Positions 12,707-46,393 of a stretch of DNA of 64,000 nt are shown here, piece after piece. The stretch is from an uncultured bacterium. GTDB taxonomy: Bacteria; Patescibacteriota; Minisyncoccia; Phycocordibacterales; PALSA-1337. Both the position numbers and the translations under genes were made by a program. How positions within the stretch are numbered: the first letter of the stretch is position 1; each line of letters opens with the position of its first letter. The stretch covers positions 352,585-416,584 of the forward strand of contig CAWKEA010000005.1 in assembly GCA_963848635.1 (NCBI GenBank), written 5' to 3'. The notes below the pieces were generated by a model that did not search any database, was not told the DNA's origin, and saw nothing but the letters and a program-made list of their open reading frames with translations.

Positions 12707-12796
12707 GATTGAAACTGAGCGTCATAATTTATTGATAACTCAATAATCGATCAAGGCGTTCCCCTCATATCAGTCCTCATTAGTATATCATTTATA

Positions 12797-13951: not shown

Positions 13952-14088
13952 TGGTGTTTTGTGTTTCATCTTACAGATCGAAATAAGTAAAAACAGATGA
14001 GTCTTTTATCTAATTCTATACATAACTAAAAAACATTCTCATTTCGTTATTATTTATGACTCTGGAAAGTATTCAATAAGGTGTATAA

Positions 14089-15774
14089 TTGCAGATTATG
14101 GATATATCCATATATTCGACGATTATCTGGATAACAGCAATAACTATAGCTAGTCTTGATCTAGTTATAATTATAGGAAGTAAGAGTTTGTCATCTTGGA
14201 CATTTGCACTACTAAGTTTTATTACAGCAGTGTGGGTGACTTCTCAGGGATTTTTTGTCTCTATATCTGACCCTGCATTAGCAAATTTACTCATTCGTTT
14301 GCAATATGTTTTAGGTCTATCAATAGCTATTGGTTTCTACCAATTTTCAATTATCTACCCTCACAATAAAAAAATCCGTCTAATATCAATAATATTAACG
14401 TTAAGTATAATTGCCTGCTTTTCTTACTTATATATATTTACTGATCTATTTATTATAAGTATTTATCGAAATGGGAGTATCGCTCGTTGGGCATGGAATT
14501 TTGGAAATCTACATTTGCTTTTTGACTTAGTTTTTTGCTCGCTTTGGATCAATGCATTATGGCGACTATATTTTACTTATCGAGAATCAGAAGGTATTTT
14601 AAAAATAAATCTTAGAACCATGTTCTTTGGATTATTACTTGGAATAATTCCACCTACACTCGCAAATATAATATTGCCCACATTAGGATACTACGAATTC
14701 AATTGGATTGGTCCAATTACGAGCGCCATTTGGATTTTAATCATTGGTTATTCAGTTGTTCGTTATCGCCAAATGAATGTTCGCACAGTCATCACAGAAG
14801 TCTTAGCGATCGCTATAACATCGATATTCTTTATAAACATATTTATTGGAGTAAATCCAAATATAGCATTACGTATATTTATATTCTGTGTATTTATTAT
14901 ATTGGCCTATTACCTCATAAAAATATCCCTGCGCGAATCACGCCAAAAAGAGCAATTATCCGACCTCAACCTCCACCTCTCGCAAAAAGTGGCGGAGCAG
15001 ACAGCGGACATACAGCGCGCGTATGAAGCGGAAAAGAAAGCTCGTCGCGATCTGGAAAAGCTCAATGACAGCAAGAACCAATTCATCATGATCACCCAGC
15101 ATCACTTGCGCGCGCCGACGACGACCATCGACCGGGAGTTGGAAGCCATGCAGAGCGGCGCTTGCGGTGAGATCACACCGGAGCAAAGAACATCCATCCG
15201 GAATGCGCGCTCGGCTTCACAGCGGCTCTCGCACATCATCGACGACTTTCTCAAGATCGCCGCCTTGAAGCCTGGCGGGAGCATGTTGAACTTGTCGCGG
15301 CAGAGCCTCTTGCCGGCCATCGATGACATCCTCGACGAGCTCAAATTGGACCTTGCCAGACTGCACATCAGCGTGAATTATTCGCGCGACGCCACCGATT
15401 GGCTAGAGCTTTCCGTCGATTTCACCAAGATGCGCGAGATCCTCCTTATCGTCATGGAAAACGCCGTCAAATACAACTGCGACCGCGGATCGATCGACGT
15501 CACCACGCGCACGCACACAGGTATGTTCGAGATTTCGATAAAGAATTCCGGCATCGGCATCACCCGCGAAGAAGCCGAAAAGATCGGTTCCGCCGTCTGT
15601 TATCGCGGTAACTGCGCGCGCTCGCAGAACCCGACCGGCATGGGCATCGGCCTCTCGGTGGTAAAAGCGATCGTCCGCGCGCATCACGGAACATTTTCGA
15701 TCGCTTCTCGTGGCAAGGGAAAAGGCGCACTTGTGGTCATTTCCCTGCCCTTGAAACAGACGTTTGGGGAGTGA
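14089..15774 (+). CDS. sensor histidine kinase (multi-TM sensor, HisKA, HATPase_c)
   Basis: roughly 270 aa polytopic N-terminus; coiled coil; H-box ITQHHLRAPTTTIDRE; C-terminal GMGIGLSVVKAIVRAHHGTF. Confidence 0.75.
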   Translation: MQIMDISIYSTIIWITAITIASLDLVIIIGSKSLSSWTFALLSFITAVWVTSQGFFVSISDPALANLLIRLQYVLGLSIAIGFYQFSIIYPHNKKIRLISIILTLSIIACFSYLYIFTDLFIISIYRNGSIARWAWNFGNLHLLFDLVFCSLWINALWRLYFTYRESEGILKINLRTMFFGLLLGIIPPTLANIILPTLGYYEFNWIGPITSAIWILIIGYSVVRYRQMNVRTVITEVLAIAITSIFFINIFIGVNPNIALRIFIFCVFIILAYYLIKISLRESRQKEQLSDLNLHLSQKVAEQTADIQRAYEAEKKARRDLEKLNDSKNQFIMITQHHLRAPTTTIDRELEAMQSGACGEITPEQRTSIRNARSASQRLSHIIDDFLKIAALKPGGSMLNLSRQSLLPAIDDILDELKLDLARLHISVNYSRDATDWLELSVDFTKMREILLIVMENAVKYNCDRGSIDVTTRTHTGMFEISIKNSGIGITREEAEKIGSAVCYRGNCARSQNPTGMGIGLSVVKAIVRAHHGTFSIASRGKGKGALVVISLPLKQTFGE

Positions 15775-15779
15775 ACAAG
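15709..15779 (+). repeat. direct repeat copy A (histidine-kinase 3' terminus)
   Basis: about 85% identical to 18552..18622 (encodes RGKGKGALVVISLPLKQTFGE-stop). Confidence 0.7.
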
Positions 15780-15803
15780 TCGCGGCCATCCTCAATTTTT
15801 ATA

Positions 15804-16514
15804 TCATTTTAAAATCAATTCTAAATTTGACTCATTTATATCGTTCAATGAATGTGCCATCGGAAGTCTGTAAACTATTGGAGAATATTTTTTAACTAAA
15901 AAATCAATCTCAGTTGGCGGTATTACATTGTCTTGTAAACCAATAACAACAGTTAAATCACTACTTTCCGTCGGATATTTAACGCTTTTCAATTCCTTTA
16001 TTATTTTTGATACATTAAGTCGATAAACATTAGGATAGCCCCTATAGAGAAACTGAAATGTATGTTCCAAGTCTTCTCCACTGCCGCCAGCTGTATGATA
16101 TGCCATATTTACAAAAGGGCACACTAATATTTTCTTTGCATTGCTTTTAGACAGTAAAACTGGTAAAGCTCCAAAACTAAAACCAATTAAATAAACCGGT
16201 AAATTACTTTGCCACAACACTTCAGACGTATTAAAAGATTCGGTGGCTTTACCTAATTTAATTATTTCTAGTGTCTGATCAATTGTTTTGATGCAATTTT
16301 TAAGAGAAAAGTTACCATCACTCTCCCAACTACCAATATATCTTGGAGTAAAGATGTTATATCCCATTTCAGAGAACTTTTTTATAACAGAATGGTGCTT
16401 ATCAATATATTGTGGCAAACCAGGAGAAATGATGACATTCCCCTTATTGCCATTAAGCCATAGACCAATCAGTGTGTTTTTAAACTTAATCCTTAATTCC
16501 ATAATATTGACCAA
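15804..16514 (-). CDS. alpha/beta hydrolase fold protein
   Basis: GFSFGA nucleophile elbow; 236 aa; start overlaps the upstream ORF by 29 nt. Confidence 0.5.
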   Translation of the reverse strand: MVNIMELRIKFKNTLIGLWLNGNKGNVIISPGLPQYIDKHHSVIKKFSEMGYNIFTPRYIGSWESDGNFSLKNCIKTIDQTLEIIKLGKATESFNTSEVLWQSNLPVYLIGFSFGALPVLLSKSNAKKILVCPFVNMAYHTAGGSGEDLEHTFQFLYRGYPNVYRLNVSKIIKELKSVKYPTESSDLTVVIGLQDNVIPPTEIDFLVKKYSPIVYRLPMAHSLNDINESNLELILK

Positions 16515-17730
16515 AATATAAAAATCTTAACTCATTCAAAAAAGACTTCTCATTTGGATGAATAGATCTATTTGGTAATTTATTTTCTAATAATTTTATT
16601 ATCATAACCATTTTATCATAAGCTATACCATAATAAAAATTATTTATAGCTTCAAGTAATTCCTTTTTAAGCTCTACAAAGCTAGCGGATAAAGGCGAAA
16701 ATAGCTCATATTTTAAAATAGTATCTATTCTCTCTCTTAATATCTCCTGCTCCTTAAGACTATTTTTAATAGTTTCAAAATTAATAATGACATCTTTTGA
16801 AACATTTCTTTTAAGGAAAAAAGATCGCAGATAACTTGGGGACAGTTCATTGAATAAGTTTGTCACCTCTTCGATATTGTTTTGCCACTTAAATTTTCTA
16901 CCATATTTATCAAGAAGAACACCATGACACACAATGTTAGTAGGAAGAAATTTGCTTGGCAAATGACATAAAGAATAATAGCTGAATTTCTTTATTATAT
17001 CACCATGAAAATATATTCTTTTAGAATACGTGCCTTGAACAAGGGCCGGAGTAAGCATAACTATGAAGCGAGGATCCAAACTATAACCATCATACGTAAT
17101 CGTATATTCTCTATTCTTAGTAAGACAGATATTATATTTTTCAGGCATCAGGTTACAAAATGTGACCAATTCTTTTTTAGCTCCAATTGGATAGATTTTT
17201 ATTCTTGATATTGTTTCCAGAATTTCATTTTTTGATATTTTTTGGTAGATAACGTTTTGATCTTTCATATCAACACTTCCGCCACATATTTTACACAAGG
17301 TAATCGTTACGTCTGTACCAAAATCAGAATTACATTTATTGCAAGTCGCAATTGGGATTGATCCTTTTATAATATTTGACTTGCAATGCATATTAACGAA
17401 ATCGGAAAGAATTGTGCTTATTTTATCATCTCTGATTTGTTCGTCAAAATCTATACAATATTTTTTTAATGCTTTAACGCCTTCTTGTATGCATTTATCA
17501 ACGAATTCTTCTCTCGTAGTTTTCGAGACAATTATGTTTTCCCTTTGCATCATTTTCAAAACTGGTAACCCATTTACATTCCAAAGCAATGGGAGACAAA
17601 CTTTTATATCCTGGAAGCGTCGTGATTTTACATAAAAATCCATCAGGATTAAATCGTAAATATTGCCCGGACTCAGTACTTTTTTCACTTGTACTGGAGC
17701 CATTATGACTATTTCATTTTCTAGTTCCAT
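16486..17730 (-). CDS. methionyl-tRNA synthetase catalytic-core paralog with degenerate HIGH and KMSKS motifs (predicted pseudo-aaRS)
   Basis: colinear with the MetRS core: N-terminal block IVIMAPVQVKKVLSPGNIYDLILMDFYVKSRRFQDIKVCLPLLWNVNGLP versus [51 protein letters not shown] (HIGH replaced by PGNIY); zinc knuckle CNKCNS...CKICGG; YFHGDIIKKFSYYSLCHLP versus HFIGKDIVYFHSLFWPAML; KMSKS replaced by KFKWQ; C-terminal anticodon-binding region truncated. Confidence 0.55.
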   Translation of the reverse strand: MELENEIVIMAPVQVKKVLSPGNIYDLILMDFYVKSRRFQDIKVCLPLLWNVNGLPVLKMMQRENIIVSKTTREEFVDKCIQEGVKALKKYCIDFDEQIRDDKISTILSDFVNMHCKSNIIKGSIPIATCNKCNSDFGTDVTITLCKICGGSVDMKDQNVIYQKISKNEILETISRIKIYPIGAKKELVTFCNLMPEKYNICLTKNREYTITYDGYSLDPRFIVMLTPALVQGTYSKRIYFHGDIIKKFSYYSLCHLPSKFLPTNIVCHGVLLDKYGRKFKWQNNIEEVTNLFNELSPSYLRSFFLKRNVSKDVIINFETIKNSLKEQEILRERIDTILKYELFSPLSASFVELKKELLEAINNFYYGIAYDKMVMIIKLLENKLPNRSIHPNEKSFLNELRFLYFGQYYGIKD

Positions 17731-18547
17731 ATATTTTTCTGTATTCTTTAGTTATGGACAACTGCAATTCAGAAAGAAAATTATATGCCATACTAAGACC
17801 TGACATTGTAATGTCATTAGTATGTTCAGATTTGTATTCCAAAAATATGCTTGGATCAATTTTCTGAGGAAACATCTTATGAAAAGTCTGCGAAGCTTCT
17901 TTTCTTGTTTCTGGATATATCTTCCAAAATGCTAGATAATACATGACACCATAAATGCACCATTTCATCATTGTGATTCGTTTTTTTGCATTCAGATCAC
18001 TGTTTACGAGCAGCTTCCGAGCTTGATACGTCAAGGAGCTAATAACTCTTACCACTTCAAGACGCAGATCATCGAGATTAATGTTTTTATTTTCAAATGA
18101 ATTTTTTCCAATCAATTGTCTACCATACATAGACAACTCAATCTGCATGTATAAAGATCTGTTGTTATGCCAAAAAGTTTCTTTTCTTCTCTTGGGCGTT
18201 TCATTATACGTATGAACATTAAAATCTAAATCAAAACCACTCGAATCGTATTTTTCTTTGATTTTCCTTAATATTTTTAATGATTCATTGTCAGCGATTT
18301 TGAGAACTATTAGTATGTCTATATCACTTAGAAAGCAATAATCATCAGACAATGAGCTTCCGTAAACAACAGCGCTTACAATATTTTCTTTCAACAACTT
18401 TTTAAGATGAATTTTTATCGGCAATAATATATTCTCCCTCTCTTCTAAACTATGCATATTAGTATTATACATATAAAAATCTAACTTGCTATTTGCACAA
18501 TCAACAAGCACATTTTCAATTTTTAAGACATTTCCTTTTTTGATCAT
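17714..18547 (-). CDS. Pol-beta superfamily nucleotidyltransferase with C-terminal helical domain (AadA/ANT-like architecture)
   Basis: VVYGSSLSDDYCFLSDIDILIV matches the hG[GS]x9-13Dh[DE]h NTase motif; likely start at MIKKGN (18547), since the listed ORF start overlaps the kinase 3' remnant. Confidence 0.55.
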   Translation of the reverse strand: MIKKGNVLKIENVLVDCANSKLDFYMYNTNMHSLEERENILLPIKIHLKKLLKENIVSAVVYGSSLSDDYCFLSDIDILIVLKIADNESLKILRKIKEKYDSSGFDLDFNVHTYNETPKRRKETFWHNNRSLYMQIELSMYGRQLIGKNSFENKNINLDDLRLEVVRVISSLTYQARKLLVNSDLNAKKRITMMKWCIYGVMYYLAFWKIYPETRKEASQTFHKMFPQKIDPSIFLEYKSEHTNDITMSGLSMAYNFLSELQLSITKEYRKIYGTRK

Positions 18548-19684: not shown

Positions 19685-20311
19685 TTATCCCTTGTCGCAT
19701 AATCCGACGATAGTATCGTAGAACAATGTCGTGGTCGCTTCTGGTAGCGCATCATAGCTCACATGGATTGGCTCCCCGACATGTATGGTTAGCCTCCTGC
19801 GCAAAAGACCCCTTTGACCGAGATGCACCGAAATTGGCAAAACTGGAGCGCCAGTTTGCGAAGCCAGCACTGCCGCACCAAGCTTGAAAGGAGCGACTTC
19901 GTGCTCGGACACGATCTTGCCTTCAGGATAGATGACGATGTTCTCGCCCTCGCTGATGAGCCGCTTTGCTTCCTCGAGATTCTTTTGCAGGCCTTGGCCG
20001 GGCACGACGATAAAAACGCCAAAAAGGCTATAAATAAAGGATATCACACCGATTTCAGAGAGAAAATTGAGCCACTTCCAATCAAACCTGTTTACGGCCA
20101 TGAATCGCAGGGGCAAGTGAGGCGTAGAAAAGCCGAGTATGAGGCGAAAGATGAAGCTGTCCGCAAAGCTGAAATGATTGGCGATGATGATGAACGGCCT
20201 GTTTACTTTTTTCAGATTCTCCCGATCGTTGATTTTGAGGCGAAAAAAGATATTAAAGTATGCATACGAGATGGGCCATGTCAGAAATTGCGAAACTTTC
20301 AATAGTTTCAT
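19685..20311 (-). CDS. plsC: 1-acyl-sn-glycerol-3-phosphate acyltransferase family protein
   Basis: HxxxxD acyltransferase motif IIIANHFSFADSF and IVIYPEGK motif. Confidence 0.75.
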   Translation of the reverse strand: MKLLKVSQFLTWPISYAYFNIFFRLKINDRENLKKVNRPFIIIANHFSFADSFIFRLILGFSTPHLPLRFMAVNRFDWKWLNFLSEIGVISFIYSLFGVFIVVPGQGLQKNLEEAKRLISEGENIVIYPEGKIVSEHEVAPFKLGAAVLASQTGAPVLPISVHLGQRGLLRRRLTIHVGEPIHVSYDALPEATTTLFYDTIVGLCDKG

Positions 20312-20368
20312 GATATTTTAGCGTATATCGAATGATACACCCGAATTTGTCCTGCGTACAGAGCGATT

Positions 20369-20959
20369 TTACTGCTTCTTTGCTTTTTCTACCGGAGCAT
20401 CGATGACTGCATTTTCTTTCTTGAGAGGAAAACCGAGGTATTCGAGAAGAGCGAGAGTATGATTCTTGTCTTTTGACGTCGTGACGATAGTAGCGGCAAG
20501 ACCAAAGACGTCTTTGAGGTCTTCATCTGCCGTCTCCGGGAAAATAGTGTGCTCTTTTATGCCGAGAGTATAATTGCCCATTTCATCGACAGTGCGAGTA
20601 AGCCCACGGAAGTCCTTGGTGCGCGGCAGTGCGATATGCACGAGGCGATCGAGAAAATCATACATCCTGGTTCCTCGCAATGTGATCTGATAGGCCAGAG
20701 GGTCTCCGGTGCGCGTCTTGTAGGTGGCGATCGATTTTTTGGCAGTGCGGGTGGCAGGCTTTTGGCCGGTTATGCGCGAAAGGCGCTCGGCAATGAGCTC
20801 TATCTTTCTCTTGTCTTTGGTCGAGCCGAAGCCGACGTTGACGACCACTTTTTCTATGCGCGGAGTCTGCATGGCGTTCTTGATATGCAAAGATTCCTTC
20901 AGGCTCGTGAAGGCATGGCCGGCTTTTTCTTTCATTGTTTCAAAAGTTTCTTTTTTCAT
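20369..20959 (-). CDS. rplE: 50S ribosomal protein L5
   Basis: MQTPRIEKVVVNVGFG and overall colinearity with uL5. Confidence 0.85.
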   Translation of the reverse strand: MKKETFETMKEKAGHAFTSLKESLHIKNAMQTPRIEKVVVNVGFGSTKDKRKIELIAERLSRITGQKPATRTAKKSIATYKTRTGDPLAYQITLRGTRMYDFLDRLVHIALPRTKDFRGLTRTVDEMGNYTLGIKEHTIFPETADEDLKDVFGLAATIVTTSKDKNHTLALLEYLGFPLKKENAVIDAPVEKAKKQ

Positions 20960-20960
20960 G

Positions 20961-21040
20961 GATTTAAGATTGAAGATTGTAAGGTTTAAAGATTGTCGTT
21001 TTTGTCATTTTTTCAATCTTACAATTTTTCAATTCATTTA
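20961..21040. repeat. AT-rich intergenic spacer with short inverted repeat (ATTGTAAG / CTTACAAT)
   Basis: between rplE start and rplX stop. Confidence 0.4.
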
Positions 21041-21271
21041 TTTTTTCTTTAAATTCTCGACATTGGCGACATTCGACGCCTGGAGCGGCATGGCCCGCTC
21101 GACTACCTGGCCCTTCTGGCCCTCTTTCCTTGCGCGTTCGTGCTTTTTGTACATGTTTACGCCTTCAACAAGGACTTTATTCTCTCTTGGGTATGCCTTC
21201 AAGACTTTTCCTGTCTTGCCCTTGTCCTTGCCGGTCAATATTTTTACGGTGTCTCCTTTTTTGATATGCAT
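21038..21271 (-). CDS. rplX: 50S ribosomal protein L24
   Basis: MHIKKGDTVKILTGKDKGKTGKVL KOW motif. Confidence 0.85.
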   Translation of the reverse strand: MHIKKGDTVKILTGKDKGKTGKVLKAYPRENKVLVEGVNMYKKHERARKEGQKGQVVERAMPLQASNVANVENLKKK

Positions 21272-21275
21272 GGTA

Positions 21276-21379
21276 TTAATTTAACTCAAAATGCAAAACG
21301 CAAAACCGAAATGCGGCGATATTTGTATTTGCTTTTGAATTTAAGTTTTGCATTTTGATTTTTGAGTTTTGCATTTGAT
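21276..21379. repeat. family-1 intergenic hairpin repeat (arms ACTCAAAATGCAAAACGCAAAAC / GTTTTGCATTTTGATTTTTGAGTTTTGCATTT; conserved loop GAAATGC...TATTTGT.TTTGAATT)
   Basis: long imperfect inverted repeat filling the rplX-rplN spacer; homologous copies at 22768..22870 and 23527..23640. Confidence 0.8.
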
Positions 21380-21751
21380 TTACACTATTTCAGACGCCTT
21401 CGACGCGATTGTCTGAAAGCCCTTTTCCTGGAGCTCTCGCGGTATCGGGCCAAAGATACGTCCGGCGATCGGCTCTTTTTTGCCTTTTTCGATGATGACA
21501 ACCGCATTCTCGTCAAAGCGTATATATGATCCGTCCAAGCGGCGGAACGCCTTTGTCTGGCGGACGACGACTGCCTGGAGGACGTCTTTCTTTTTGACGG
21601 CTTTGCGCGGCTCGGCCTTTTGGACCGATAGGACGACCATCTCGCCGATCTCGGCATAGCGCTTCTTTGACGAGCCGAGCACCTTGAAGACGCGGCCTAT
21701 CTTTGCGCCACAGTTGTCGGTTATTTTTACAATTGTGCGTGGTTGGATCAT
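21380..21751 (-). CDS. rplN: 50S ribosomal protein L14
   Basis: MIQPRTIVKITDNCGAKIGRVFKVLGSSKKRYAEIGEMVVLSV. Confidence 0.9.
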   Translation of the reverse strand: MIQPRTIVKITDNCGAKIGRVFKVLGSSKKRYAEIGEMVVLSVQKAEPRKAVKKKDVLQAVVVRQTKAFRRLDGSYIRFDENAVVIIEKGKKEPIAGRIFGPIPRELQEKGFQTIASKASEIV

Positions 21752-21755
21752 GTTT

Positions 21756-22064
21756 TTATGCTATGACTTTGAACGCCTTATGCTTCGACATCGGTCGGCA
21801 CGACTCGATCGTCACTTTATCGCCGATCTTTTTCGTGTTTCCAGCGTCGTGGGCTTTGAGACGCAAAGTCTTCTTCATGAATTTGTGATATTTCGGATGC
21901 TTGACATAGCGCTCAACTGTCACGACGACAGTGTCTTTCATTTTGTCGGAAGCGACGATGCCCGAAAGCTGCATACGGCGAGGCTCGTGCGTAGCTTGAG
22001 CCGCGGCAAGATTGGCTGCTTGCGCTTTGTCTTTTGTATTCTTTTGTACAGTTTCTTTTGCCAT
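21756..22064 (-). CDS. rpsQ: 30S ribosomal protein S17
   Basis: VVTVERYVKHPKYHKFMKKTLRLKAHD. Confidence 0.85.
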   Translation of the reverse strand: MAKETVQKNTKDKAQAANLAAAQATHEPRRMQLSGIVASDKMKDTVVVTVERYVKHPKYHKFMKKTLRLKAHDAGNTKKIGDKVTIESCRPMSKHKAFKVIA

Positions 22065-22081
22065 GCTATATGTTTCTTTTG

Positions 22082-22300
22082 TTATTTCGTGCGCTTGTTC
22101 TTTTCAGCCTTTGCCGCTTCGTTCTTTTGCGCGGAAAGTGTGGTCATGATGCGAGCGATCTCGGTGCGATGGCTCCTGCCCTCCTTGACGTTCTTTGCCT
22201 TGCCGCCCGTCGAACCGAAACGGAAACTGCGCAGAGCCGTACGCTTCTCCACAAGGAGGTTCGCGAGGTCTGGTGCGGTTTTATTGAGGTAATCTTTCAT
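22082..22300 (-). CDS. rpmC: 50S ribosomal protein L29
   Basis: 72 aa helical protein in the conserved position between rplP and rpsQ. Confidence 0.75.
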
Positions 22301-22330
22301 AGGAGTCTTTATACTACGGATATCTGGAGA

Positions 22331-22762
22331 TTATGCAAGCTCTCTCGATACGATCTTTGTTTTGACCGAGATCTTCGTCCCAGCCTTGCGGAGGGCTTCA
22401 ACCGATTCTTTGTCGCCGACTCCGTCGATCTCAAAAAGGATGCGCCCCGGCTTGATCTCCGCCACGAAGCCGACCGGCTCACCTTTTCCCTTGCCGAGCT
22501 TCACTTCAGGAGGCTTTTGGGTGTACGGCCTGTCTGGGAAAATACGGACCCATACTTTGCCCGCTTTGGTCGCGTAACGGCTCATGACTTTCCTGGCGGC
22601 CTCGATCTCGTTCGACGTGATGCGGCCGAATTTAGTAGCCTTCAATCCATACGAACCGAAAGCGAGCGCGATACCGCGAGTCTCGACGCACGTGTCGAGC
22701 TTTTTCTGGTTCCTGCGACCAGTGTGCCACTTTCTGAATTTTACTTTTTTAGGGAATAGCAT
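22331..22762 (-). CDS. rplP: 50S ribosomal protein L16
   Basis: [16 protein letters not shown]; start taken at MLFPKK rather than the upstream in-frame Met. Confidence 0.9.
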
Positions 22763-22767
22763 GGTAG

Positions 22768-22870
22768 TAAATTTAAAATGCAAAACTCAAAACGCAAAAC
22801 TGAAATGCTGCAATGCACGTATTTGTCTTTGAATTATGCTTTTGCATTTTGAGTTTTGACTTTTGAGTTA
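22768..22870. repeat. family-1 intergenic hairpin repeat; right arm encodes the C-terminal tail of rpsC
   Basis: AAAATGCAAAACTCAAAACGCAAAAC ... GCTTTTGCATTTTGAGTTTTGACTTTTGAG; rpsC stop codon lies inside the element (gaaTTAtgc) and 22837..22866 encode ...VKTQNAKA. Confidence 0.8.
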
Positions 22871-23523
22871 TTAAATATATCTCCCTTGTAGATCCAGACC
22901 TTTATGCCGATGTCGCCATAGGTCATGTGCGCGCGCTCGCGGGCAAAATCGATGTCGGCACGCAAGGTCTGGAGAGGGATGCGGCCTTTCTTGAGCTCCT
23001 CGGAGCGGGCGATATCCGTGCCGCCGAGGCGTCCTGACAGACGAATGCGGGCGCCGCCGACATCGCGGTTCGCCGTGATCTTCTCGATCGATTGCTTCAA
23101 GACGCGGCGGAACGGAAGGCGCTTTTCGAGGCTTTCGGCGATCATCATTGCGGCGATCGCGGCGTTTGACTCCGGGCTACGGACTTCTTCGATGTCTATC
23201 TTGAGCTCCTGCCCTGCTAGGTCTATCTTGTTCTTTTTGAAGAGCTTGAGGATCTTGTCTCGAAGCGCTACCATCCCTTCGCCCTGACGGCCGATGATCG
23301 TGCCTGGGCGCGAAGTGCGAATGGTGACTTTGACTGATTTCTGGTTGCGCTCGATTGCGACGTCGGAAAGGTAATTCGCTCGCAATTCCTCGACCAAAAA
23401 TTCTCGCAAAATGAGATCGGCTTTCAAGGAACTGCGATAATTCTTGCCCGTGCCGAACCAGCGGCTCTTCCAGTCGCGGATGATCCCAAGGCGGTGTGAA
23501 TATGGATGTACGGAGTGTGACAT
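22834..23523 (-). CDS. rpsC: 30S ribosomal protein S3
   Basis: KH domain and S3 C-terminal domain; C-terminal tail SKVKTQNAKA encoded by the repeat arm. Confidence 0.9.
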   Translation of the reverse strand: MSHSVHPYSHRLGIIRDWKSRWFGTGKNYRSSLKADLILREFLVEELRANYLSDVAIERNQKSVKVTIRTSRPGTIIGRQGEGMVALRDKILKLFKKNKIDLAGQELKIDIEEVRSPESNAAIAAMMIAESLEKRLPFRRVLKQSIEKITANRDVGGARIRLSGRLGGTDIARSEELKKGRIPLQTLRADIDFARERAHMTYGDIGIKVWIYKGDIFNNSKVKTQNAKA

Positions 23524-23526
23524 GTT

Positions 23527-23640
23527 AATTAAAGTTAAAACTCAAAACGCAAAGTTCAAAACTAAATGCGCTATCAGAATTATTGTATTTTGAATTAAAG
23601 TTTTGCATTTTGAGTTTTGAGCTTTGAGTTTGCTTTCTCG
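23527..23640. repeat. family-1 intergenic hairpin repeat; right arm encodes the C-terminal tail of rplV
   Basis: AAAACTCAAAACGCAAAGTTCAAAAC ... AGTTTTGCATTTTGAGTTTTGAGCTTTGAGTTTGC; rplV stop at 23595 inside the element; tail ...KANSKLKTQNAKL. Confidence 0.8.
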
Positions 23641-23969
23641 ACGCGTGGCGCGAGGACAAGGCTGATATTGCTCGTGCGCTTCTTTATCGGGTTGGCCATG
23701 CCGCGAGAACGAGGCATGCTACGCTTGAGCACTTGGCCGCCATCGACGCGCAATTCCTTGACCATCAATGTCTCGCGCTCTATTTGAAAATTATTCTTTG
23801 CATTGGCGATAGCGCTCTCGATAAGGGTAACGAGAGGATCGGCGCCTTTTTTCGCCGTGTGCGAAAGTATCAAAATCGCCTGATCGGCTGATTTTCCCCT
23901 GACGAGATTGGCCGCTACGCGGATTTTGCGGGGAGAGATGCGATGATTTTTAAGCGATGCGGTGATCAT
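23595..23969 (-). CDS. rplV: 50S ribosomal protein L22
   Basis: MITASLKNHRISPRKIRVAANLVRGKSADQAI. Confidence 0.85.
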   Translation of the reverse strand: MITASLKNHRISPRKIRVAANLVRGKSADQAILILSHTAKKGADPLVTLIESAIANAKNNFQIERETLMVKELRVDGGQVLKRSMPRSRGMANPIKKRTSNISLVLAPRVEKANSKLKTQNAKL

Positions 23970-23974
23970 GGAAA

Positions 23975-24328
23975 TTATTTCTTGTCGGCTGAAGCGGTCG
24001 TGGCGGCCTCTTTGGCGGATTTTGCGGCATTGACTTCAGCCTCCTTTGCCTTGAGCTCGATCTCCTTTTGCATCTTGCCTCCATGGCGGAGGAATTTCTT
24101 TGTAGGCGAAAATTCACCGAGGCGGTGTCCAACCATGTCCTCGGTGACCAAAACGTCGATATGCTGTTTGCCGTTGTATACGCCAAAAGTAAATCCGACC
24201 ATTTCAGGAGAAATGGCCGAGCGACGATACCACGTCTTGATTGACGCTGTCGTGGCGGCTTTTTTGCCGGCTATCTTCTTGAGAAGCCGTTCTTCGACGA
24301 ATATGCCTTTTTTGAGCGATCGTGCCAT
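23975..24328 (-). CDS. rpsS: 30S ribosomal protein S19
   Basis: [16 protein letters not shown]...[27 protein letters not shown]. Confidence 0.9.
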
Positions 24329-24437
24329 GAATTATAGATATTCTAGATAAAAAACGAGCTCGGACGAGCTTGCTTGCATCTTAACAGAGCCTTGATTTGA
24401 AGTCAATACATCGTGCTATACTGATGGTTAAACATCA

Positions 24438-25220
24438 ATGTCATCGATCACCCCAGAAGTCATGCAGGCTTTCCTTATCGCCCTCCTCATACTGCTCATA
24501 GGCTTTTCATTGTGGCGCAAACTGCACGAGAACGAATCCCTCAAATACGAGTTCATAACCATCATCACCCATAAATTCCGCACGCCGATGACGCATATCA
24601 AATGGATCCTGGCGGACTTGATCCAAAGCGAGACTGATCCATACCGCAAAGAGAGCCTGACAAAGCTCGAGAGGTCGAACGACGACTTGGTCCAGCTCGT
24701 CAGCGCCCTCATCGAGGTCACCGATACTCCAAAAAAAGGAAAGGCATCATACCAATTCGAACGCGTTAACCTCGTCGATCTGACCAGGGGCGTCTTCAAT
24801 CTTTTCGACCATTCTTTCAAAGAAAAGAACATATCGATCACGCTCGACTTCCGTACCGCGGACATATTCGTCAAAGTTGACCGTTCTCGATTGGAATTCG
24901 TCCTTTCGACCATCATCGAAAACGCCTCTATGTATACGTCCACAGGGCAGAAAGTATTGATCTCAGTCGGATCAAAATGGAGAAAGGCAATTGTAACAGT
25001 CGCGGATGAAGGCATAGGCATGAGCTCGCTCGACATGCACAATGTCGGCACGAAATTCTTTCGGGCAAAGACTGCGCGGGCAATGGACACCAGCGGGTTC
25101 GGGATCAATCTATATCTGGCCAGATCCATAATCAGGCGCCTCCATGGCAAGCTCGAGATCTATTCTGCGGGATTAAAGACTGGCTCGACATTCAAAGTTA
25201 TATTATCAAAAGTCACGTGA
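24438..25220 (+). CDS. sensor histidine kinase (single TM, HisKA, HATPase_c)
   Basis: H-box ITHKFRTPMTHIKW; C-terminal GFGINLYLARSIIRRLHG. Confidence 0.7.
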   Translation: MSSITPEVMQAFLIALLILLIGFSLWRKLHENESLKYEFITIITHKFRTPMTHIKWILADLIQSETDPYRKESLTKLERSNDDLVQLVSALIEVTDTPKKGKASYQFERVNLVDLTRGVFNLFDHSFKEKNISITLDFRTADIFVKVDRSRLEFVLSTIIENASMYTSTGQKVLISVGSKWRKAIVTVADEGIGMSSLDMHNVGTKFFRAKTARAMDTSGFGINLYLARSIIRRLHGKLEIYSAGLKTGSTFKVILSKVT

Positions 25221-25280
25221 AGGCACATTGACAAGAGCAAGCGGAAAAATAAAAATTAAATCGTTCAGTGATCGCGCCTC

Positions 25281-26580
25281 CTATTCATATCTCAAAGCCT
25301 CGATCGGGCTCTTTTTGCTCGCCTGCCGCGCGGGATAGCCGCCAAAGACGAGGCCAATGACTGCAGAGACAGTGATGCCGAGGATAGCGCCTGACCACGG
25401 AAAGACGAATTGCCAATTGATCGCAAGAGCATGCGAAAGGATAAAGGCGATCAGAAACGCGAGACCAGAGCCGAGCAGAATGCCGACGACACCGCCGATA
25501 ACAGTCAACAAAACCGCTTCGAGGAGGAATTGCGATAGAATGTCGCGATTTTTCGCACCGAGCGCCTTGCGCAAACCGATCTCGCGCGTGCGCTCGGTCA
25601 CGGAGACGAGCATGATATTCATGATGCCGACGCCGCCGACGAACAATGCGATAGAGGCGACTGCAACGAGGAACCATGTGAGCGCCGAGGTGATCGTGCC
25701 GAGAGTATTGGCCAAACTTTGCTGCGTCTCGACAGTGAAGTCATCCTTTGTCGGATCGGTTATGCCGTGCGACTCCTCGAGAGTCAATTTTATATTAGCG
25801 GCAGTGACCGGGACAGTCTGGTCGGATGATGCTTGGGTTATGACGCGATTGTAATACTTTTGGCCCGTGACGTACGTCATGGCTGTCGTGTATGGCATGA
25901 TGACCATCGAGTCAAAGTCGAACAATGTGCCCCCGCCTGATTTCGGCAGCACAGCGACGACGCGAAAATTTCGTCCCTTTATCGTTATGTTCTGATTATA
26001 CGGATCCTGATTCTCAAACAGATAATTCGCTACATCAGCTCCAATGACGACGACGCTCGACATAGAATCGACATCGCTCTGGTCAAAGAACTGCCCTTCC
26101 GAAGGAGTGATGTTGAAAATGCTGGCCATGAGGTCAGTGCCGCCGAATATTGTGACCTGGTAAGTGTTCGGGCCATATGAAGCGGCGTCAGAGCCGATGA
26201 CCACAGGCATGATGGATATGAGGTCGGGCACATTTGCTTTGCTCATGAGAGCGGTCACATCCTTTGGCTTCAGCGAGTCGCTGTAGAGCGCAGAGGCGCC
26301 TGCTCGACGGGCTCGTGGATACTTGGCCCGGAATGATGGCGATAGTGTTCGTGCCGAGGCCCTGGACCTCGCCAAGAATAAGGTTCTGCGCGCCCGCCCC
26401 GAGCGACACGACCAACATGATGGCCGTGATGCCGATGACGATGCCGAGGATGGTCAAAATCGACCGCGAACGGTTCGTGCGCAGGCCGGTGAATGAGGTT
26501 TTAAATAAATGGCGGATGGTCATGGTTTTATTGTGTAAGCAACTTGAAAGCAGTATTAAATGCTTCATCGGCAGTTTCAA
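25281..26580 (-). CDS. ABC transporter permease, FtsX/MacB family (frameshifted near 26330)
   Basis: N-terminal TM plus periplasmic domain in ORF 26188..26580 continues in ORF 25281..26375 after IIPG; C-terminal four-helix FtsX domain. Confidence 0.7.
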
Positions 26581-26600
26581 ATGTTTGATATCCGTACTTA

Positions 26601-27098
26601 TCAGCTCTCTTCTTTATAACGCGGCCGTTCGACATTAAAGAAAGAGTTTGCTTCCATTTCTTGCAAATGACGGGTGTTGCCCCATCGTGGATCTTCAATA
26701 TTGCGCTTTAGTATGTCTTCGTACGACTTACCAAGAAGCACAATGCCCGGAAAATCTAAATCTTTCTTGGCAAGATGAGGTAACAGGTTAACGCATTCAA
26801 AAATTACTGGCATTTTCTCTTCTTTAAATGAATTTATTTTTTCAAGGAAAACCGGCCACAAACCTTCTGATTGCAAGACGATATTATTCCATTGCTTGTC
26901 CTTGCTGGTTTCAGTGTAGTATTTTTCCTCATTCTTATCCAAGAAAAAGTTGACCCATTTCCCGTACCTACCATCTGAAGCCAACGATTCTCTGAAATCA
27001 TCGAGAGAAACGATAATGCCGCCTGTCTTTTTAGCAAGTTTTTTTGCGAGATATGATTTGCCCGAAGCTGGAATTCCTGTGATAAATAGTTTATTCAT
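26601..27098 (-). CDS. P-loop NTPase/kinase-like protein
   Basis: Walker A GIPASGKSYLA at N-terminus; 165 aa. Confidence 0.5.
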   Translation of the reverse strand: MNKLFITGIPASGKSYLAKKLAKKTGGIIVSLDDFRESLASDGRYGKWVNFFLDKNEEKYYTETSKDKQWNNIVLQSEGLWPVFLEKINSFKEEKMPVIFECVNLLPHLAKKDLDFPGIVLLGKSYEDILKRNIEDPRWGNTRHLQEMEANSFFNVERPRYKEES

Positions 27099-27146
27099 AA
27101 TATTAAATTTGAGTTATACACAATGTCGTCTTGAATCATGCTATAC

Positions 27147-28091
27147 TTAATCCATCTGGGCTCCCGCAGATGCGGGACTCAGAGAGTTGCCCAGCAAAGA
27201 CGGTTGCTTCTCGTGATAATGCTGAGCTATTCTCTTGGTCCTACCCGATAAACCTGGTATGTACTTTTTGACAGCGACTATGTTGATTTCATTATAGTGC
27301 CTTCTGTTCAAGGTTTTGTGAATGCCTTTAAACGATATCGAGTTCTTTAGCTGTGCGCTAATTTGCTTCGTACCTTTCTTGTTTTGAAGAAAATATAGAT
27401 TACAAGTATAGGCAATTATATCAGCCAATTCCAATCCAGCAGATAGGACCTCTTTGTTGGCAAAAGATATAGATACTACAGATTTCTTTAAAGACTTAGC
27501 CAAGCTTACTAAATGTTTATTCTTGAAAGAATTTCTATCTGCAACCAAGTTATAGTTCCTAATAGTAAAAGGGTCGCCTGCCCTGCTTTCAAAAACAATT
27601 TTTAATCTTCCATTATTTTTTAATTCCCTCACAGCCCAGTGATAAAGGGCATTAACACCAACATCCAAAGGAAGTTGGTTATCGACTCGGGAATAAAATC
27701 TCTTTGTAGCAATCCAACTGTCTCCTTTATCAGGATATTTTTTGAAAGACAAACATCTTCTGACTAAATCTTTTGGCACACAAACCGCAAGATAGGTGAC
27801 GTTGTATCCTTTTATCAAATCCCATATTTCCTCTTGAAACTTTTTTCTTAAATCTTTTTTACTTCTTTTACGTGTAGTGCCTAAATAGCTTTCTGTATAA
27901 TCATTCTCAAATATATCTACCGCATGTATATGTTCATCCGGAGATAAATTATACTTTTCTTTCAATCTTTTGATCAAAAAAAGGAAATTCCCTTCATTAA
28001 CTTCGTCAATCAAAACACCACAAACAATGGTAAATTTGTCCTTCGAAGAAAGTTCTGGCGTTCCTGATTCATCTATATACAATATTTTCAT
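27147..28091 (-). CDS. DUF3800 domain protein
   Basis: N-terminal MKILYIDESG signature typical of DUF3800; 314 aa. Confidence 0.5.
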   Translation of the reverse strand: MKILYIDESGTPELSSKDKFTIVCGVLIDEVNEGNFLFLIKRLKEKYNLSPDEHIHAVDIFENDYTESYLGTTRKRSKKDLRKKFQEEIWDLIKGYNVTYLAVCVPKDLVRRCLSFKKYPDKGDSWIATKRFYSRVDNQLPLDVGVNALYHWAVRELKNNGRLKIVFESRAGDPFTIRNYNLVADRNSFKNKHLVSLAKSLKKSVVSISFANKEVLSAGLELADIIAYTCNLYFLQNKKGTKQISAQLKNSISFKGIHKTLNRRHYNEINIVAVKKYIPGLSGRTKRIAQHYHEKQPSLLGNSLSPASAGAQMD

Positions 28092-28147
28092 AAATTTTTA
28101 TTTCACCCAGTAGGCGACTCAATAGAGTCGTGTTCTGGACTAAATTG

Positions 28148-28876
28148 CTATTTCACATATTCCGCATCCGCGGAAAGCCTATTTTTTACCTTCACATCGC
28201 TGTCGATCGCGCCGTCCATAAGGCGGATGATGCGCTCGGAATGCTCGGCTGTGGCCGTTTCGTGCGTGATGAGAACGATCGTCTTGCCCTCTTTTTCATT
28301 TAATTTTTGAAGGATGGACATGATATTCTTGCCGGATTTACTATCGAGATTACCCGTCGGCTCGTCAGCGAAAATCACGTCCGGGTCAGTGACGAGGGCA
28401 CGCGCGATTGCCACGCGCTGCCGTTCGCCGCCGGAGAGCTCGCTCTGGTCATGGTTGAGTCGGTTGCCGAGGCCGACCGATTCGATCGCCTTCGTGGCTC
28501 GCTCGTTCCATTCATGTTCGGGAATATTGTCAGAATAGACGAGCGGCAATTTTACGTTCTCGAGCACGCTCGTGCGGGCGAGGAGATTGAAAGCCTGAAA
28601 GACAAAGCCGAGCTTTTGGTTGCGCAGATACGCCAATTCGTTCGAGTCATACGAAGTGATATTCTTGCCGTCAAAATGATATGTGCCAGACGTCGGCGTA
28701 TCGAGGAGGCCAAGGAGGTGGAGCAATGTCGATTTGCCAGAGCCTGACGGCCCCATGATGGCCATGAATTCGCCTTTGCGCACATTAAAGGTCACTCCGG
28801 CCAATGCGACTGTCGCCTCGCTGCCGTCGCTGTACGACTTCCTCAGATTTTTAACTTCTATTATGTTTTCTGCCAT
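28148..28876 (-). CDS. ABC transporter ATP-binding protein (MacB/LolD-type)
   Basis: Walker [10 protein letters not shown], signature [15 protein letters not shown], Walker [13 protein letters not shown]. Confidence 0.85.
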
Positions 28877-28885
28877 TGAAAAATG

Positions 28886-30431
28886 TTAGGAACCAATATA
28901 CGTCACCACTTTGTCTCCAGGCTTCAAGCCAGAGAGGATCTGCACTGAGCCATCGGAGCCTTTGAGGCCTGTCGTGACGGGAACGCTTGAATACATCAGA
29001 CCATTCGTGGAGACGAGCCGTACATCGGTTGATGTTGAAGTGATCAAGAGCGCACGATACGGGATCTCGAGGACATTATCTGTCTCGTGGGTCAATATCT
29101 CGATATTCGAGGTCATGCCGCTCTTTATACGGCTGTCCGGAGAGATGAATTGGAGGGTGACCTTGTATGTCGGTACGCCCTCGAGAACGGTTTCGGCAGG
29201 ATCGATCATGACCACCTTCTCTGGGAAGTTAACGTATGCGCCGTATGCATCGAGCGTGCTCGACGCTAGGTCTCCGACAGCCACCTTGGCGATGTCAGCC
29301 TCGGCGACGTATGCCTCGACTTTGAATCCGCTATTCTGCACTGCAAAGCCGCTCTGCCCCGGCGCCACATATTCGCCGACATTAGGGTCTTCTTGCGTGA
29401 CGATGCCGTCGATAGGCGAAACGAGAGTATCTTCCGCGAGGACAGCTTGCACCTGCGCGACTTTTGCAGCCTGGGCGGCGATCGCATTTGGAGTCGATCC
29501 GGATTGCTGGAGCGTGAAGGTGTTTTCCGCCTGTGCATATCCAGATTCAGCGCTCTTTAATTCCGTATCAGCCGCAGAGATCGTACCGATCGCCTGGTTC
29601 AAAGGTAGAAAGAGATGTATTCATGGTCGCCACGGCAGAATCGATAGCGGATTGCGGTAGACCAGAGTTGCCAGGGCTCAGATTGTTCACAATGACAGAA
29701 AGATCGGTCAAGTAGCTCTTGATAGTCGATAGATATCCTTTCGCATTAGAGATGAGCTGGCTCGTATTGGTCGCATCTGCGTTGCTTGAATCGATCTGCC
29801 AGTCATCGAGCACGGTTGCGATCTGCAAACGTTCGTTATTTATGGAAAGCGAGATAGTGTTCGATTGTGTGCGCACATTTATCGTCGGATTTGCAGTCTG
29901 TGGATTGGTAAAGAAGGTATCGCCATAGTTCACGACAGCACTTTGTGCCTGCACATAGCCGGTATGTATGGCATTTACCGCATCAGATAGGGCGTTTGCA
30001 AGGCTTGTGGAAGCTGAACCGACGGCAGATTGATCTGCGGCGTATTGTGCCGACGTAAGGCCGCTCGACATATCGGCGAGAGTCGCTTGTGCCGATGCGA
30101 CCGCCGCTTGGTCGTCGGCGCTGTCGAGAGATGCGATGGGATCGCCTGCCTTGACTGTATCGCCGACATTGACGTAGATCTTTGAGATGACGCCCCCTTT
30201 TTCAAAGGCGAGCGCGGCAGACGAGACCGGCGAGACAGTGCCAGTGACGCTGACCTGCTCAACCACGTTGCCGATCTGTGCAGTCGCATACTGGAAATTC
30301 GGCTTCTTCGGCTTTTCTTTTTCATAGACGATACCAGCGATGATGAGAACGATGACGATGCTCATGATGACCCATTTGTTTTTCAAGTGACGGAAGTGCG
30401 ATTTTTTCATATGCAAAATTATAACATACAA
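28886..30431 (-). CDS. HlyD/MacA-like periplasmic adaptor (membrane fusion protein), frameshifted near 29570-29600
   Basis: N-terminal TM and coiled-coil in ORF 29568..30431; beta-barrel/lipoyl-like C-terminal half in ORF 28886..29602; ORFs overlap 35 nt. Confidence 0.65.
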
Positions 30432-30517
30432 GCCGTTAGCCGACTATTTTTATTTCACTTTTTTAGGCAAAGAAAAAGCCGGGCTGGATCGCGCCAGCGC
30501 GGCTGTGACTGATAATT

Positions 30518-31804: not shown

Positions 31805-32063
31805 ACTATCTCCTTCGTTGTTTGTTGTTGTGCAGTATTGGTTGTAAAAGACCGACTCAAAGACTGCTTTTTTGCTTTGTGTCTGAATCGAACATTACTC
31901 GTAAGTATCAATGATGTCAAGGTGAACGAGTTGACAGAACTACTTTTACGCGCTAAAAAGGACTTAGAATTATCGCACAATCGCCGTTCCGAAAGGAATG
32001 GCTTTTTATTTCAAGAAAAAACCGCCGAGCTTGTGAAAGCCCGGCGATATGAGATTACGTAAT

Positions 32064-33437: not shown

Positions 33438-33551
33438 TTTCTGAACATCACCCTACAAAATATCCGATATAATGTCAAGAAAAACACGGGTCTTTGCCCG
33501 TGCCGTTCTTTTGTAAAAAATTTTGAATCGTTCAAACCGGCCTCCCTCTTC

Positions 33552-34400: not shown

Positions 34401-34411
34401 TGTTAATTAAT

Positions 34412-36262: not shown

Positions 36263-36265
36263 GTT

Positions 36266-36273
36266 GGGGGGGG
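36266..36273. repeat. G8/C8 homopolymer 3 nt upstream of the rplC start codon
   Basis: minus strand reads CCCCCCCCAAC-ATG; occupies the expected Shine-Dalgarno position. Confidence 0.8.
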
Positions 36274-36356: not shown

Positions 36357-36365
36357 CTGTATTTC

Positions 36366-46297: not shown

Positions 46298-46317
46298 GAT
46301 TTTGTTTAGAATTAGAT

Positions 46318-46389: not shown

Positions 46390-46393
46390 TTTA

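Follow-up and report, generated by a model that had tools for sequence, protein, structure and literature searches.

Three homologous hairpins in a ribosomal protein operon

The DNA analysed here is a stretch of 64,000 nucleotides (hereafter the window) from contig CAWKEA010000005.1 of an uncultured member of the Patescibacteriota, and its subject is a family of palindromic repeats, termed Family-1, in the spacers of a ribosomal protein (r-protein) operon. Between 20.3 and 24.3 kb all r-protein genes lie on the minus strand, in the order rpsS-rplV-rpsC-rplP-rpmC-rpsQ-rplN-rplX-rplE. Homologous elements of about 105 nt, with a mean column identity of 82%, occupy three of the spacers:

21272-21385, minus strand: Family-1 hairpin copy A, rplN-rplX spacer (arms 21283-21312 and 21339-21368; nhmmer 98 bits)
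22763-22880, minus strand: Family-1 hairpin copy B, rpsC-rplP junction (arms 22770-22799 and 22840-22869; nhmmer profile match)
23524-23640, minus strand: Family-1 hairpin copy C, rplV-rpsC junction (arms 23531-23563 and 23599-23631; nhmmer profile match)

All three are imperfect palindromes with inverted arms of 30-33 nt and 82-83% complementarity. The arms consist of tandem 7-nt units that read CAAAAYK on the plus strand (TRF, period 7); in mRNA sense the 5' arm is built of CAAAAnn and the 3' arm of nnUUUUG, and both heptamer copy number and register vary among the copies. In the window the unit motif was counted 21 times, compared to 0.5 occurrences expected, and none of 100 shuffles reached this count. 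For each copy a stem of 23-27 bp, rich in A-U and G-U pairs, was predicted, with folding energies of -23 to -26 kcal/mol and z-scores of -2.9 to -4.1 (copy A: -25.5 kcal/mol, z -3.8; copy B: -26.3 kcal/mol, z -4.1; copy C: -23.0 kcal/mol, z -2.9). Thus column identity, arms and folds bear out the preliminary description of this locus, which had proposed three homologous inverted-repeat elements in these spacers.

In copy A the stop codon of rplN (21380-21382) is located just outside the 5' arm, and the stop codons of rpsC (22834-22836) and rplV (23595-23597) are both located within the elements. The 3' arm always ends 10-15 nt upstream of the next ATG and the native TTAATTAAC-ATG context is kept, while the genes of the window lack obvious Shine-Dalgarno sequences.

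For comparison, r-protein loci of relatives (L001-L080, with L001 corresponding to JAGOQK01 and L059 to LCOC01), metagenome contigs (L081-L200) and two independent assemblies (L201, L202) were used. The copy-A spacer was found to be identical in both independent assemblies, and a search for identical L14 proteins recovered the same population only, again with an identical spacer. L201, an independent short-read assembly of the same population, begins inside copy B, and its first stretch (1-110) is identical in sequence. Consequently, these repeats fragment assemblies of the Candidate Phyla Radiation (CPR) inside the r-protein marker operon.

Orthologous spacers in relatives

The best matches of the S3 protein are metagenome-assembled genomes (MAGs) of Paceibacterota/Parcubacteria within the CPR, with at most 76% identity. 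Among 80 relatives the same r-protein spacers mostly measure 2-40 nt. Here and there, at varying positions, spacers of 60-270 nt are found; most of these are long hairpins as well, with arms of short tandem units and genome-specific sequences. Family-1 itself was found in 2 of these 80 gene clusters, namely in L001 (one copy, rplN-rplX) and in L059 (four copies). L001 is one half of a filled/empty pair: about 109 nt are inserted behind the rplN stop codon, at the bar of GTT-TAA-A|TAACTAC-ATG, with discrete boundaries, and the same site is empty in L002, L005, L009 and L011. Given this pair and the mostly empty spacers of the relatives, the elements are insertions and not a conserved feature of the operon. 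The rplV-rpsC junction carries Family-1 in two further, distant lineages (L128 and L139), in L128 in opposite orientation and with a nested GC hairpin.

Other repeats were observed in the same operon of relatives. L001 carries a hairpin of another family (GAGGTATGAGCTAAGAG units) at 5966-6052 in the rpsQ-rplN spacer, which measures about 22 nt in its sisters; a TAG adjoins it on the left and a TAA on the right, as if it had been inserted at the rpsQ stop. Tandem units containing ACGAAT occur in r-protein spacers of L009, L029, L030, L031, L041 and L059, so that this motif recurs across genomes. These arrays form hairpins in L030, L041 and L059 and are one-armed, with almost no predicted structure, in L029, L031 and L009.

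A conserved core and its ORF-bearing relatives

The part best shared by the three copies and L001 is a core, CAAAATGCAAAANNNNAATTCAAA:

21334-21357, minus strand: core of copy A, CAAAATGCAAAACTTAAATTCAAA
22828-22851, minus strand: core of copy B, CAAAATGCAAAAGCATAATTCAAA, with the rpsC stop TAA inside
23589-23612, minus strand: core of copy C, CAAAATGCAAAACTTTAATTCAAA, with the rplV stop TAA inside

It follows the pattern CAAA-ATG-CAA-AAY-NNN-AAT-TCA-AA and forms the inner end of the 5' arm. Metagenome contigs yielded at least 120 exact matches to the core, and about 100 of 118 non-redundant core matches among those listed lie inside heptamer tracts. The whole IMG/VR collection yielded a single match, a chance one in an AT-rich phage. 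Three forms could be distinguished among the matches listed: 37 short hairpins, 61 single 5' arms and 17 copies of an ORF type, defined by a complementary arm 300-480 nt downstream of the core.

In at least 14 contigs of the latter type the complementary arm is located 367-401 nt (about 380 nt) downstream and one open reading frame (ORF) of about 124 amino acids spans the distance between the arms. This ORF starts with the ATG of the core (ATG CAA AAT TAC AAT TCA AAA = MQNYNSK) and ends with a TGA in the first TTTTGA unit of the 3' arm. It encodes a member of the family 23S_rRNA_IVP, PF05635 (E 7e-25, 88 bits against a cutoff of 33.8), and also matches TIGR02436, 'four helix bundle protein' (E 7e-27). 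Thus in full-length relatives the core, ATG followed by CAA AAY NNN AAT TCA AAA, reads M-Q-N-x-N-S-K of the PF05635 ORF. When a profile was built on the hairpins of the window, it matched the 5' ends of such cassettes over hairpin positions 9-64 approximately, which comprise the arm and the first codons, with E-values of 1e-8 to 1e-5. L108 encodes a more distant protein of this family (32% identity), and heptamer arms are present on its flanks too.

The cassette architecture and the profile match therefore identify what had first been described as a conserved loop motif as the inner end of the terminal repeat, which carries the start of the cassette ORF. It is part of the 5' arm and holds, in full-length relatives, the start codon and the first eight codons. 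Judged by sequence, the window hairpins would be an ORF-less form of the PF05635 cassette in which only the ATG and 7-8 codons were kept.

Among the matches listed, the short hairpin copies occur in both orientations relative to flanking genes (17:16). The listed ORF-bearing copies are co-oriented with their upstream neighbour in 17 of 17 cases and with their downstream neighbour in 12 of 15. Flanking ORFs of listed copies typically abut or overlap the edges of the element.

One might speculate that the hairpins are nothing but AT-rich, low-complexity spacers that grew in situ through replication slippage and template switching. The tandem 7-mer arms with their differing copy number and register fit this idea, as do single-arm tracts in rnhA and polA (see below) and the varying heptamer number among Coxiella strains (PMC4990558). 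However, the 24-nt core is partly non-repetitive and identical in the three copies, in L001 and in about 100 of the listed metagenome contigs, the boundaries of filled and empty sites are discrete, and the arms are tied to a specific protein family. The conserved core and the cassette architecture already refute slippage largely, and we consider this scenario hardly credible; the copies are clearly more than simple low-complexity spacer, which the preliminary description had named as a refuting outcome.

The single arms deserve separate mention. In 20 listed metagenome copies of this form, the core ATG starts an ORF of at least 80 amino acids, and about 15 of these 20 ORFs encode non-IVS proteins in frame: L1, Fmt, an MGMT-like protein, ThrRS, a prepilin leader and glycosyltransferases. 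Each starts with MQNxNSK(F/L)K (examples are L098, L099, L110, L158, L171, L176 and L194). Such half-elements seem to donate start codons and N-termini. This observation, together with the lack of obvious Shine-Dalgarno sequences in the window, would also suit a device for translational coupling or initiation, in which the hairpin joins a stop to the next start or the A-rich arm serves as unstructured leader. In the window, however, the arm lies 5' of a stop and not of a start, the downstream starts keep their native context, and empty sites are the norm in relatives. We thus regard such a device as highly improbable.

Relation to intervening sequences of 23S rRNA

Intervening sequences (IVSs) have been known since about 1990, and helices 25 and 45 of the 23S rRNA are their classical sites. 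Three metagenome contigs with 23S rRNA genes among the matches listed carry Family-1 elements inside those genes. In L188 a Family-1 hairpin occupies the terminal loop of hairpin 573-594 of the large-subunit (LSU) rRNA model, which is helix 25, and helix 45 has a mere 17-nt loop. L175 and L172 possess a Family-1-type copy in the loop of LSU-model hairpin 1205-1227, which is helix 45, and a second, related heptamer-arm hairpin at the helix-25 site.

The 23S rRNA genes of the latter two contigs are unusual in other aspects as well. That of L175 (677-4918) comprises 4242 nt compared to the 2925 positions of the model. Besides the two heptamer-arm hairpins, it contains about 1.3 kb of further insertions at several sites, and small GC hairpins directly adjoin the helix-45 element; L172 is of the same kind.

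The IVS of Coxiella is 428 nt long, is located in helix 45 and comprises a 28-bp terminal stem and the S23p ORF; immediately upstream of the ATG of this ORF lie heptameric repeats in tandem, whose number varies among strains (PMC4990558). Its excision by RNase III was shown in vitro, and IVSs as a class are excised by RNase III without religation, as demonstrated for Coxiella and others (PMC4990558). A survey of CPR rRNA genes described short ORF-less insertions at the known IVS sites 23IS2 and 23IS4 of the 23S rRNA, and 23S_rRNA_IVP ORFs in 16S and 23S insertions; copies outside rRNA are unmentioned there (PMC11270868). Our literature search returned nothing on IVS-type elements in CPR mRNA spacers; IVSs are described in that literature only inside rRNA genes.

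Compared to the ORF-containing IVSs of the Coxiella/Leptospira type, the present family shares a terminal stem of about 25-30 bp, a PF05635 ORF in relatives, heptamers upstream of the ATG and members in helices 45 and 25 of the 23S rRNA. In contrast, the window copies are ORF-less, lie in spacers of an r-protein operon and overlap the 3' ends of coding sequences. The arm units differ too, being GACAGAT in Coxiella and CAAAAnn here, and RNase III excision, shown for the former, would be expected for the latter by analogy. The short IVSs of the Salmonella/Yersinia type and the CPR insertions 23IS2/23IS4 resemble the window copies as ORF-less hairpins of about 100-200 nt, and Family-1-type copies are found at such sites in L172, L175 and L188. 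However, they are known from inside rRNA genes, whereas the copies described here reside in mRNA spacers and coding ends.

If the features of an IVS are taken together, the window copies possess the long terminal stem (about 20-30 bp; predicted 23-27 bp) and are present or absent in a patchy manner among close relatives. At least 14 metagenome members that share their core and arms link them by homology to elements that enclose PF05635. A site in helix 9, 25 or 45 of the 23S rRNA is found for the family members L188, L172 and L175, not for the window copies. By its architecture, the enclosed protein family, the heptamers and the members at helices 25 and 45, the element can be assigned to the IVSs as far as homology allows. 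Since they are located outside the 23S rRNA and without an ORF, the window copies represent variant, IVS-type miniature palindromes.

A different origin could be envisioned, in which Family-1 is a classical MITE (miniature inverted-repeat transposable element) that some transposase mobilised in trans, with the PF05635 ORF as a passenger and the rRNA copies as coincidence. Terminal inverted repeats, small size, lack of coding capacity, many copies, both orientations and filled/empty sites are all in line with a MITE. Copy A is flanked by TAAAT on both sides and the second element of L001, as mentioned, by TAG and TAA at the rpsQ stop; since the junctions are AT-rich, chance flanking repeats are likely. 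However, no transposase accompanies any of the 118 listed copies, and PF05635 is the only ORF enclosed, with its start and stop within the arms. Furthermore, the L001/L002 junction shows no duplication, and copies sit at two canonical IVS helices of the 23S rRNA. Consequently, a MITE in this sense appears quite improbable.

Other known systems were compared as well. The Correia elements of Neisseria (Correia repeat enclosed elements, CREE, or nemis) are palindromic repeats of about 100-150 bp that are co-transcribed with their neighbours and form hairpins in mRNA. RNase III binds such hairpins and either cleaves or protects them (PMC2649163). By analogy, Correia elements may serve as the best functional model for an IVS-like hairpin in mRNA. 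Their sequence is unrelated, though: they have a TA target duplication, motifs for integration host factor (IHF) and promoter motifs, and are linked neither to PF05635 nor to the IVS sites of rRNA. Rickettsia palindromic elements (RPE) and QMITE1 of Coxiella are likewise palindromic miniatures that are tolerated in ORFs and provide conserved proteins with additional peptide segments or new termini (PMC10969869, PMC5896051). However, RPE are in-frame insertions in the interior of genes, and no ORF-bearing relative of theirs is known, whereas Family-1 overlaps mostly C-termini, besides a loop of RnhA and a linker of PolA that both stem from single arms. Thus the Family-1 elements are not members of the Correia, RPE or QMITE1 families. 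The repetitive extragenic palindromic sequences and bacterial interspersed mosaic elements (REP/BIME) with their REP-associated tyrosine transposases (RAYT) were rejected too: these are G+C-rich, 20-40 bp long, tagged with GTAG/CGTC and usually clustered, and the present elements measure about 105 nt and are A+T-rich, heptameric and untagged. A CRISPR reading was rejected on anatomy.

The accessory protein Avd of diversity-generating retroelements (DGR) shares the four-helix-bundle superfamily fold with the cassette protein, which matches NF033474 weakly (E 1.3e-3). In contrast to a true Avd, it reaches 19 bits against a cutoff of 80 bits, and neither a reverse transcriptase nor template/variable repeats were found nearby. 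A link to Avd as a route to RNA-mediated mobility is speculative.

Protein segments encoded by the arms

Single arms and complete elements both contribute to proteins of the window:

22834-22872, minus strand: arm-encoded C-terminal tail of S3, NNSKVKTQNAKA plus stop, which replaces the short K-rich tail of relatives
23595-23630, minus strand: arm-encoded C-terminal tail of L22, NSKLKTQNAKL plus stop
50940-50970, minus strand: single A-rich heptamer tract in rnhA, IQNSKIKNQN, in frame (hairpin-profile E 0.017)
60139-60164, minus strand: single A-rich heptamer tract in polA (hairpin-profile E 0.016)

Since the stop codons of rpsC and rplV lie inside the element, S3 ends with ...NNSKVKTQNAKA and L22 with ...ANSKLKTQNAKL (NSKLKTQNAKL). 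The final 12 codons and the stop of rpsC are located in the 5' arm of copy B, and the final 11 codons or so plus the stop of rplV in the 5' arm of copy C. Repeat-encoded tails of both proteins, with stops inside the element in two copies, had been anticipated in the preliminary description, which also called for a comparison with relatives. S3 of 45 relatives ends in other, short K-rich tails, for example KKDQKNG, and tblastn matches of S3 end at residue 217-221 of 229. The L22 tails of relatives are variable and Lys-rich.

Related tracts, likewise noticed before, were recovered in frame in rnhA and at the junction of the polA ORFs. Both are lone arms without a partner arm and match the profile of the three hairpins weakly (E about 0.017). 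The rnhA tract falls within a 16-residue insertion in the beta2-beta3 region, if compared to the RNase HI structures of E. coli and Thermus, and is a possible remnant of a half-element. The polA tract is located at the overlap of the 5'-nuclease ORF (ending ..SKLKIQNSKMKGI and stop) and the polymerase ORF (..VKTQNSKLK..) and is read in two frames.

The polA region (58837-61112) is itself split, the two ORFs sharing about 150 nt in different frames where the heptamer tract lies, and the C-terminal 90 residues or so of the polymerase ORF look out of frame. The split could reflect a pseudogene, assembly indels or slippage at the repeat.

Other hairpin families and signs of function at the RNA level

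In total, the window contains seven long hairpins of three families. All seven are found in the approximately 24 spacers within or next to r-protein and elongation factor (EF) genes, and none in about 55 others (Fisher p about 1e-4). This enrichment is not seen among the listed metagenome matches of Family-1, about 5% of which lie in r-protein or rRNA contexts, roughly the genomic share. Besides co-option, insertion may favour highly transcribed DNA or TAA-rich junctions.

Family 2 (TAGAAGTAGAAAA-type units; arms TAGAAGTAGAAAATAGAAG) comprises three copies at 36262-36362, 46297-46400 and 46812-46910, which are located in the spacers rpsJ-rplC and rpsL-rpsG and upstream of rpsL. Its arms of 24 nt show 83-92% complementarity and fold with -23 to -34 kcal/mol (z -5 to -9), and two copies hold a common small GC hairpin, GCGAGCAUGCUUGC, in the loop. 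Family 3 is represented by one copy (GATTGAA / GATTGTAAGG units) at 20960-21040 in the rplX-rplE spacer, with -21.5 kcal/mol as plus strand (antisense) compared to -8.9 kcal/mol as mRNA. Across 200 loci only chance matches to Families 2 and 3 were obtained, and the Family-2 hairpin pattern was not found in viral contigs. All seven hairpins of the window fold better as antisense, i.e., plus strand, which in these models suggests strand-asymmetric mutation or antisense expression.

A scan of the whole window against Rfam delivered only two tRNAs that reach the gathering score and no match at the elements. Promoter and terminator scans of 20300-24400 found no site at the elements, and none of 14 terminator-like sites coincides with one. 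An intrinsic terminator or attenuator was consequently rejected, as the stems are rich in A-U and G-U pairs and no terminator-like site is present; an r-protein leader or another known Rfam family was rejected for want of an Rfam match. Thus the attenuation site that had been offered as an alternative to a proliferating element finds neither a terminator nor a known RNA family. An RNA processing site, the other alternative, would be plausible only by homology to the RNase III-cut IVSs of the 23S rRNA (PMC4990558).

Further peculiarities of the window were noticed. The S10 operon is split (24400-33550): rplB ends at about 33.55 kb and rpsS starts at 24.33 kb, and the intervening 9 kb or so hold unrelated genes, partly on the opposite strand, among them ORFs that resemble histidine kinases and ABC transporters or permeases. 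The rplB gene seems frameshifted at 34300-34402, with the N-terminus MKHYPPFTKSRRHMTTISFKDHVTVSE in one frame and the rest (KPYKPLTVGFKRDAARNNQGRITV...) in another. The frame changes near GGAAGCC (about 34320), owing either to an indel of the assembly or to a genuine frameshift. The region 12000-18000 is low in GC (0.31-0.42 compared to about 0.48-0.52 elsewhere), contains AT-rich palindromes at 15794-15827 and 16690-16739, and may be foreign DNA.

Selfish palindromes or processing elements

Repeats such as REP, Correia and enterobacterial repetitive intergenic consensus (ERIC) elements act as intercistronic processing or stabiliser elements in other bacteria. Accordingly, the Family-1 hairpins could have been exapted and be under selection to segment the mRNA, to protect 3' ends or to tune how strongly adjacent cistrons are translated relative to each other. 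Since the window hairpins are enriched in r-protein spacers (all seven, as given above), this explanation stays alive. Moreover, this operon contains hairpin families peculiar to single genomes in many relatives, insertions recurred at the rplV-rpsC and rplN-rplX junctions, and the 3' arm ends 10-15 nt before an intact native start context. The interaction of Correia elements with RNase III, by cleavage or protection (PMC2649163), provides a precedent. However, the orthologous spacers of most relatives lack the element, both orientations occur, no bias toward a stable sense strand was detected, covariation is absent, and the share of listed metagenome matches in r-protein or rRNA contexts is unremarkable. 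We thus consider exaptation unlikely.

In our judgement the Family-1 repeats are probably ORF-less miniature IVS-type selfish palindromes that are widespread in CPR/Patescibacteria and that reside here in mRNA spacers, a reading built on sequence homology. It agrees with the earlier proposal of a proliferating miniature element that is tolerated at coding ends, for which more than 100 metagenome contigs, mostly empty orthologous spacers, ORF-bearing versions and both orientations now speak. The following course of events can be proposed. In the full-length cassette the 5' arm would consist of CAAAAnn heptamers, with the start codon and first codons (MQNxNSKFK) at its inner end, and the 3' arm of complementary TTTTGnn units, with the stop codon in the first of them. 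The miniature form would have retained both arms and the first eight codons and lost the body of the ORF. In this genome, copies would have landed at gene junctions of the r-protein operon, and two of these insertions would have displaced the native stops, so that translation of S3 and L22 continues along the 5' arm and ends at a stop in the core. Such tails would be tolerated because the K/Q/N/S peptides encoded by the heptamers are hydrophilic and because both proteins natively have short, variable, Lys-rich tails.

Given that no promoter- or terminator-like sites were found at the copies, we infer that the element is co-transcribed with the operon. Its RNA would fold into the predicted A-U/G-U-rich stem of 23-27 bp, which might be a substrate of RNase III, in analogy to rRNA IVSs and to Correia elements in mRNA (PMC2649163). 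A cut would then split the polycistronic mRNA between cistrons, and where a coding sequence enters the 5' arm, translating ribosomes would be expected to melt the stem.

Several points weigh against this reading. The 3' arms match those of the cassettes weakly (E 0.01-4), and the homology of the arms rests partly on low-complexity heptamers. A tblastn search with the IVS protein found no full-length PF05635 gene in the window or in the r-protein loci L001-L080, and no rRNA gene is present in the window (Rfam scan) or in the relatives' r-protein loci. Because of this, either a master copy or a copy in the rRNA of this genome would be hypothetical. No consistent target-site duplication was seen, with none in the filled/empty alignment of L001 and L002, and the cassette protein is not a known transposase. 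No rnc signature (RNase III motif) was found in the window. The restriction of all seven hairpins to r-protein spacers is not what pure neutrality predicts. At the level of RNA, none of 13 consensus pairs shows a compensatory change (RNAalifold, three copies and L001). The test for compensatory changes proposed at the outset thus came out negative, and the differing heptamer register between copies accounts for the lack of such pairs. Pairing within a copy's own arms is slightly better than across copies (-17.5 compared to -16.0 kcal/mol, permutation p = 0.002). Finally, the sense RNA does not exceed the antisense RNA in stability, and spacers of 49 relatives and 22 metagenome copies showed no bias either.

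Usually empty sites, absent covariation, a marginal gain of own-arm pairing and a sense RNA of no greater stability lead us to regard the copies as most likely near-neutral passengers and not regulators.

Implications

That one element, in ORF-bearing and ORF-less form, also populates mRNA spacers and coding ends of CPR bacteria separates the IVS from the ribosome. As far as our literature search showed, IVSs have been discussed as rRNA insertions only (PMC4990558, PMC11270868). A broader reading, in which IVSs are general, transcript-resident selfish palindromes of CPR that settle in any transcribed junction, is possible, yet rather doubtful at this stage. If true, the palindromes would owe their survival either to the trimming of the stem by RNase III or to ribosomes that read through harmless K/Q/N/S arms. 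They would also remodel proteins at a large scale: arms would give C-terminal tails, as in S3 and L22, and half-elements would give a start and an MQNxNSKFK N-terminus to unrelated genes such as those of L1, Fmt, ThrRS and prepilin. The restriction to r-protein genes in the window would then mean that their polycistronic mRNA is cut into cistron-sized pieces, comparable to the fragmented 23S rRNA of IVS-bearing organisms.

With many independent filled and empty sites at hand, the target preference of the elements can be worked out. The nature of IVSs becomes directly testable as well, through RNase III ends on mRNAs and through binding of the four-helix-bundle protein to the arms. Taken together, such elements explain odd C-terminal tails and insertions in otherwise conserved CPR proteins, as well as assembly breaks in the r-protein operons of CPR MAGs, which are widely used as phylogenomic markers.

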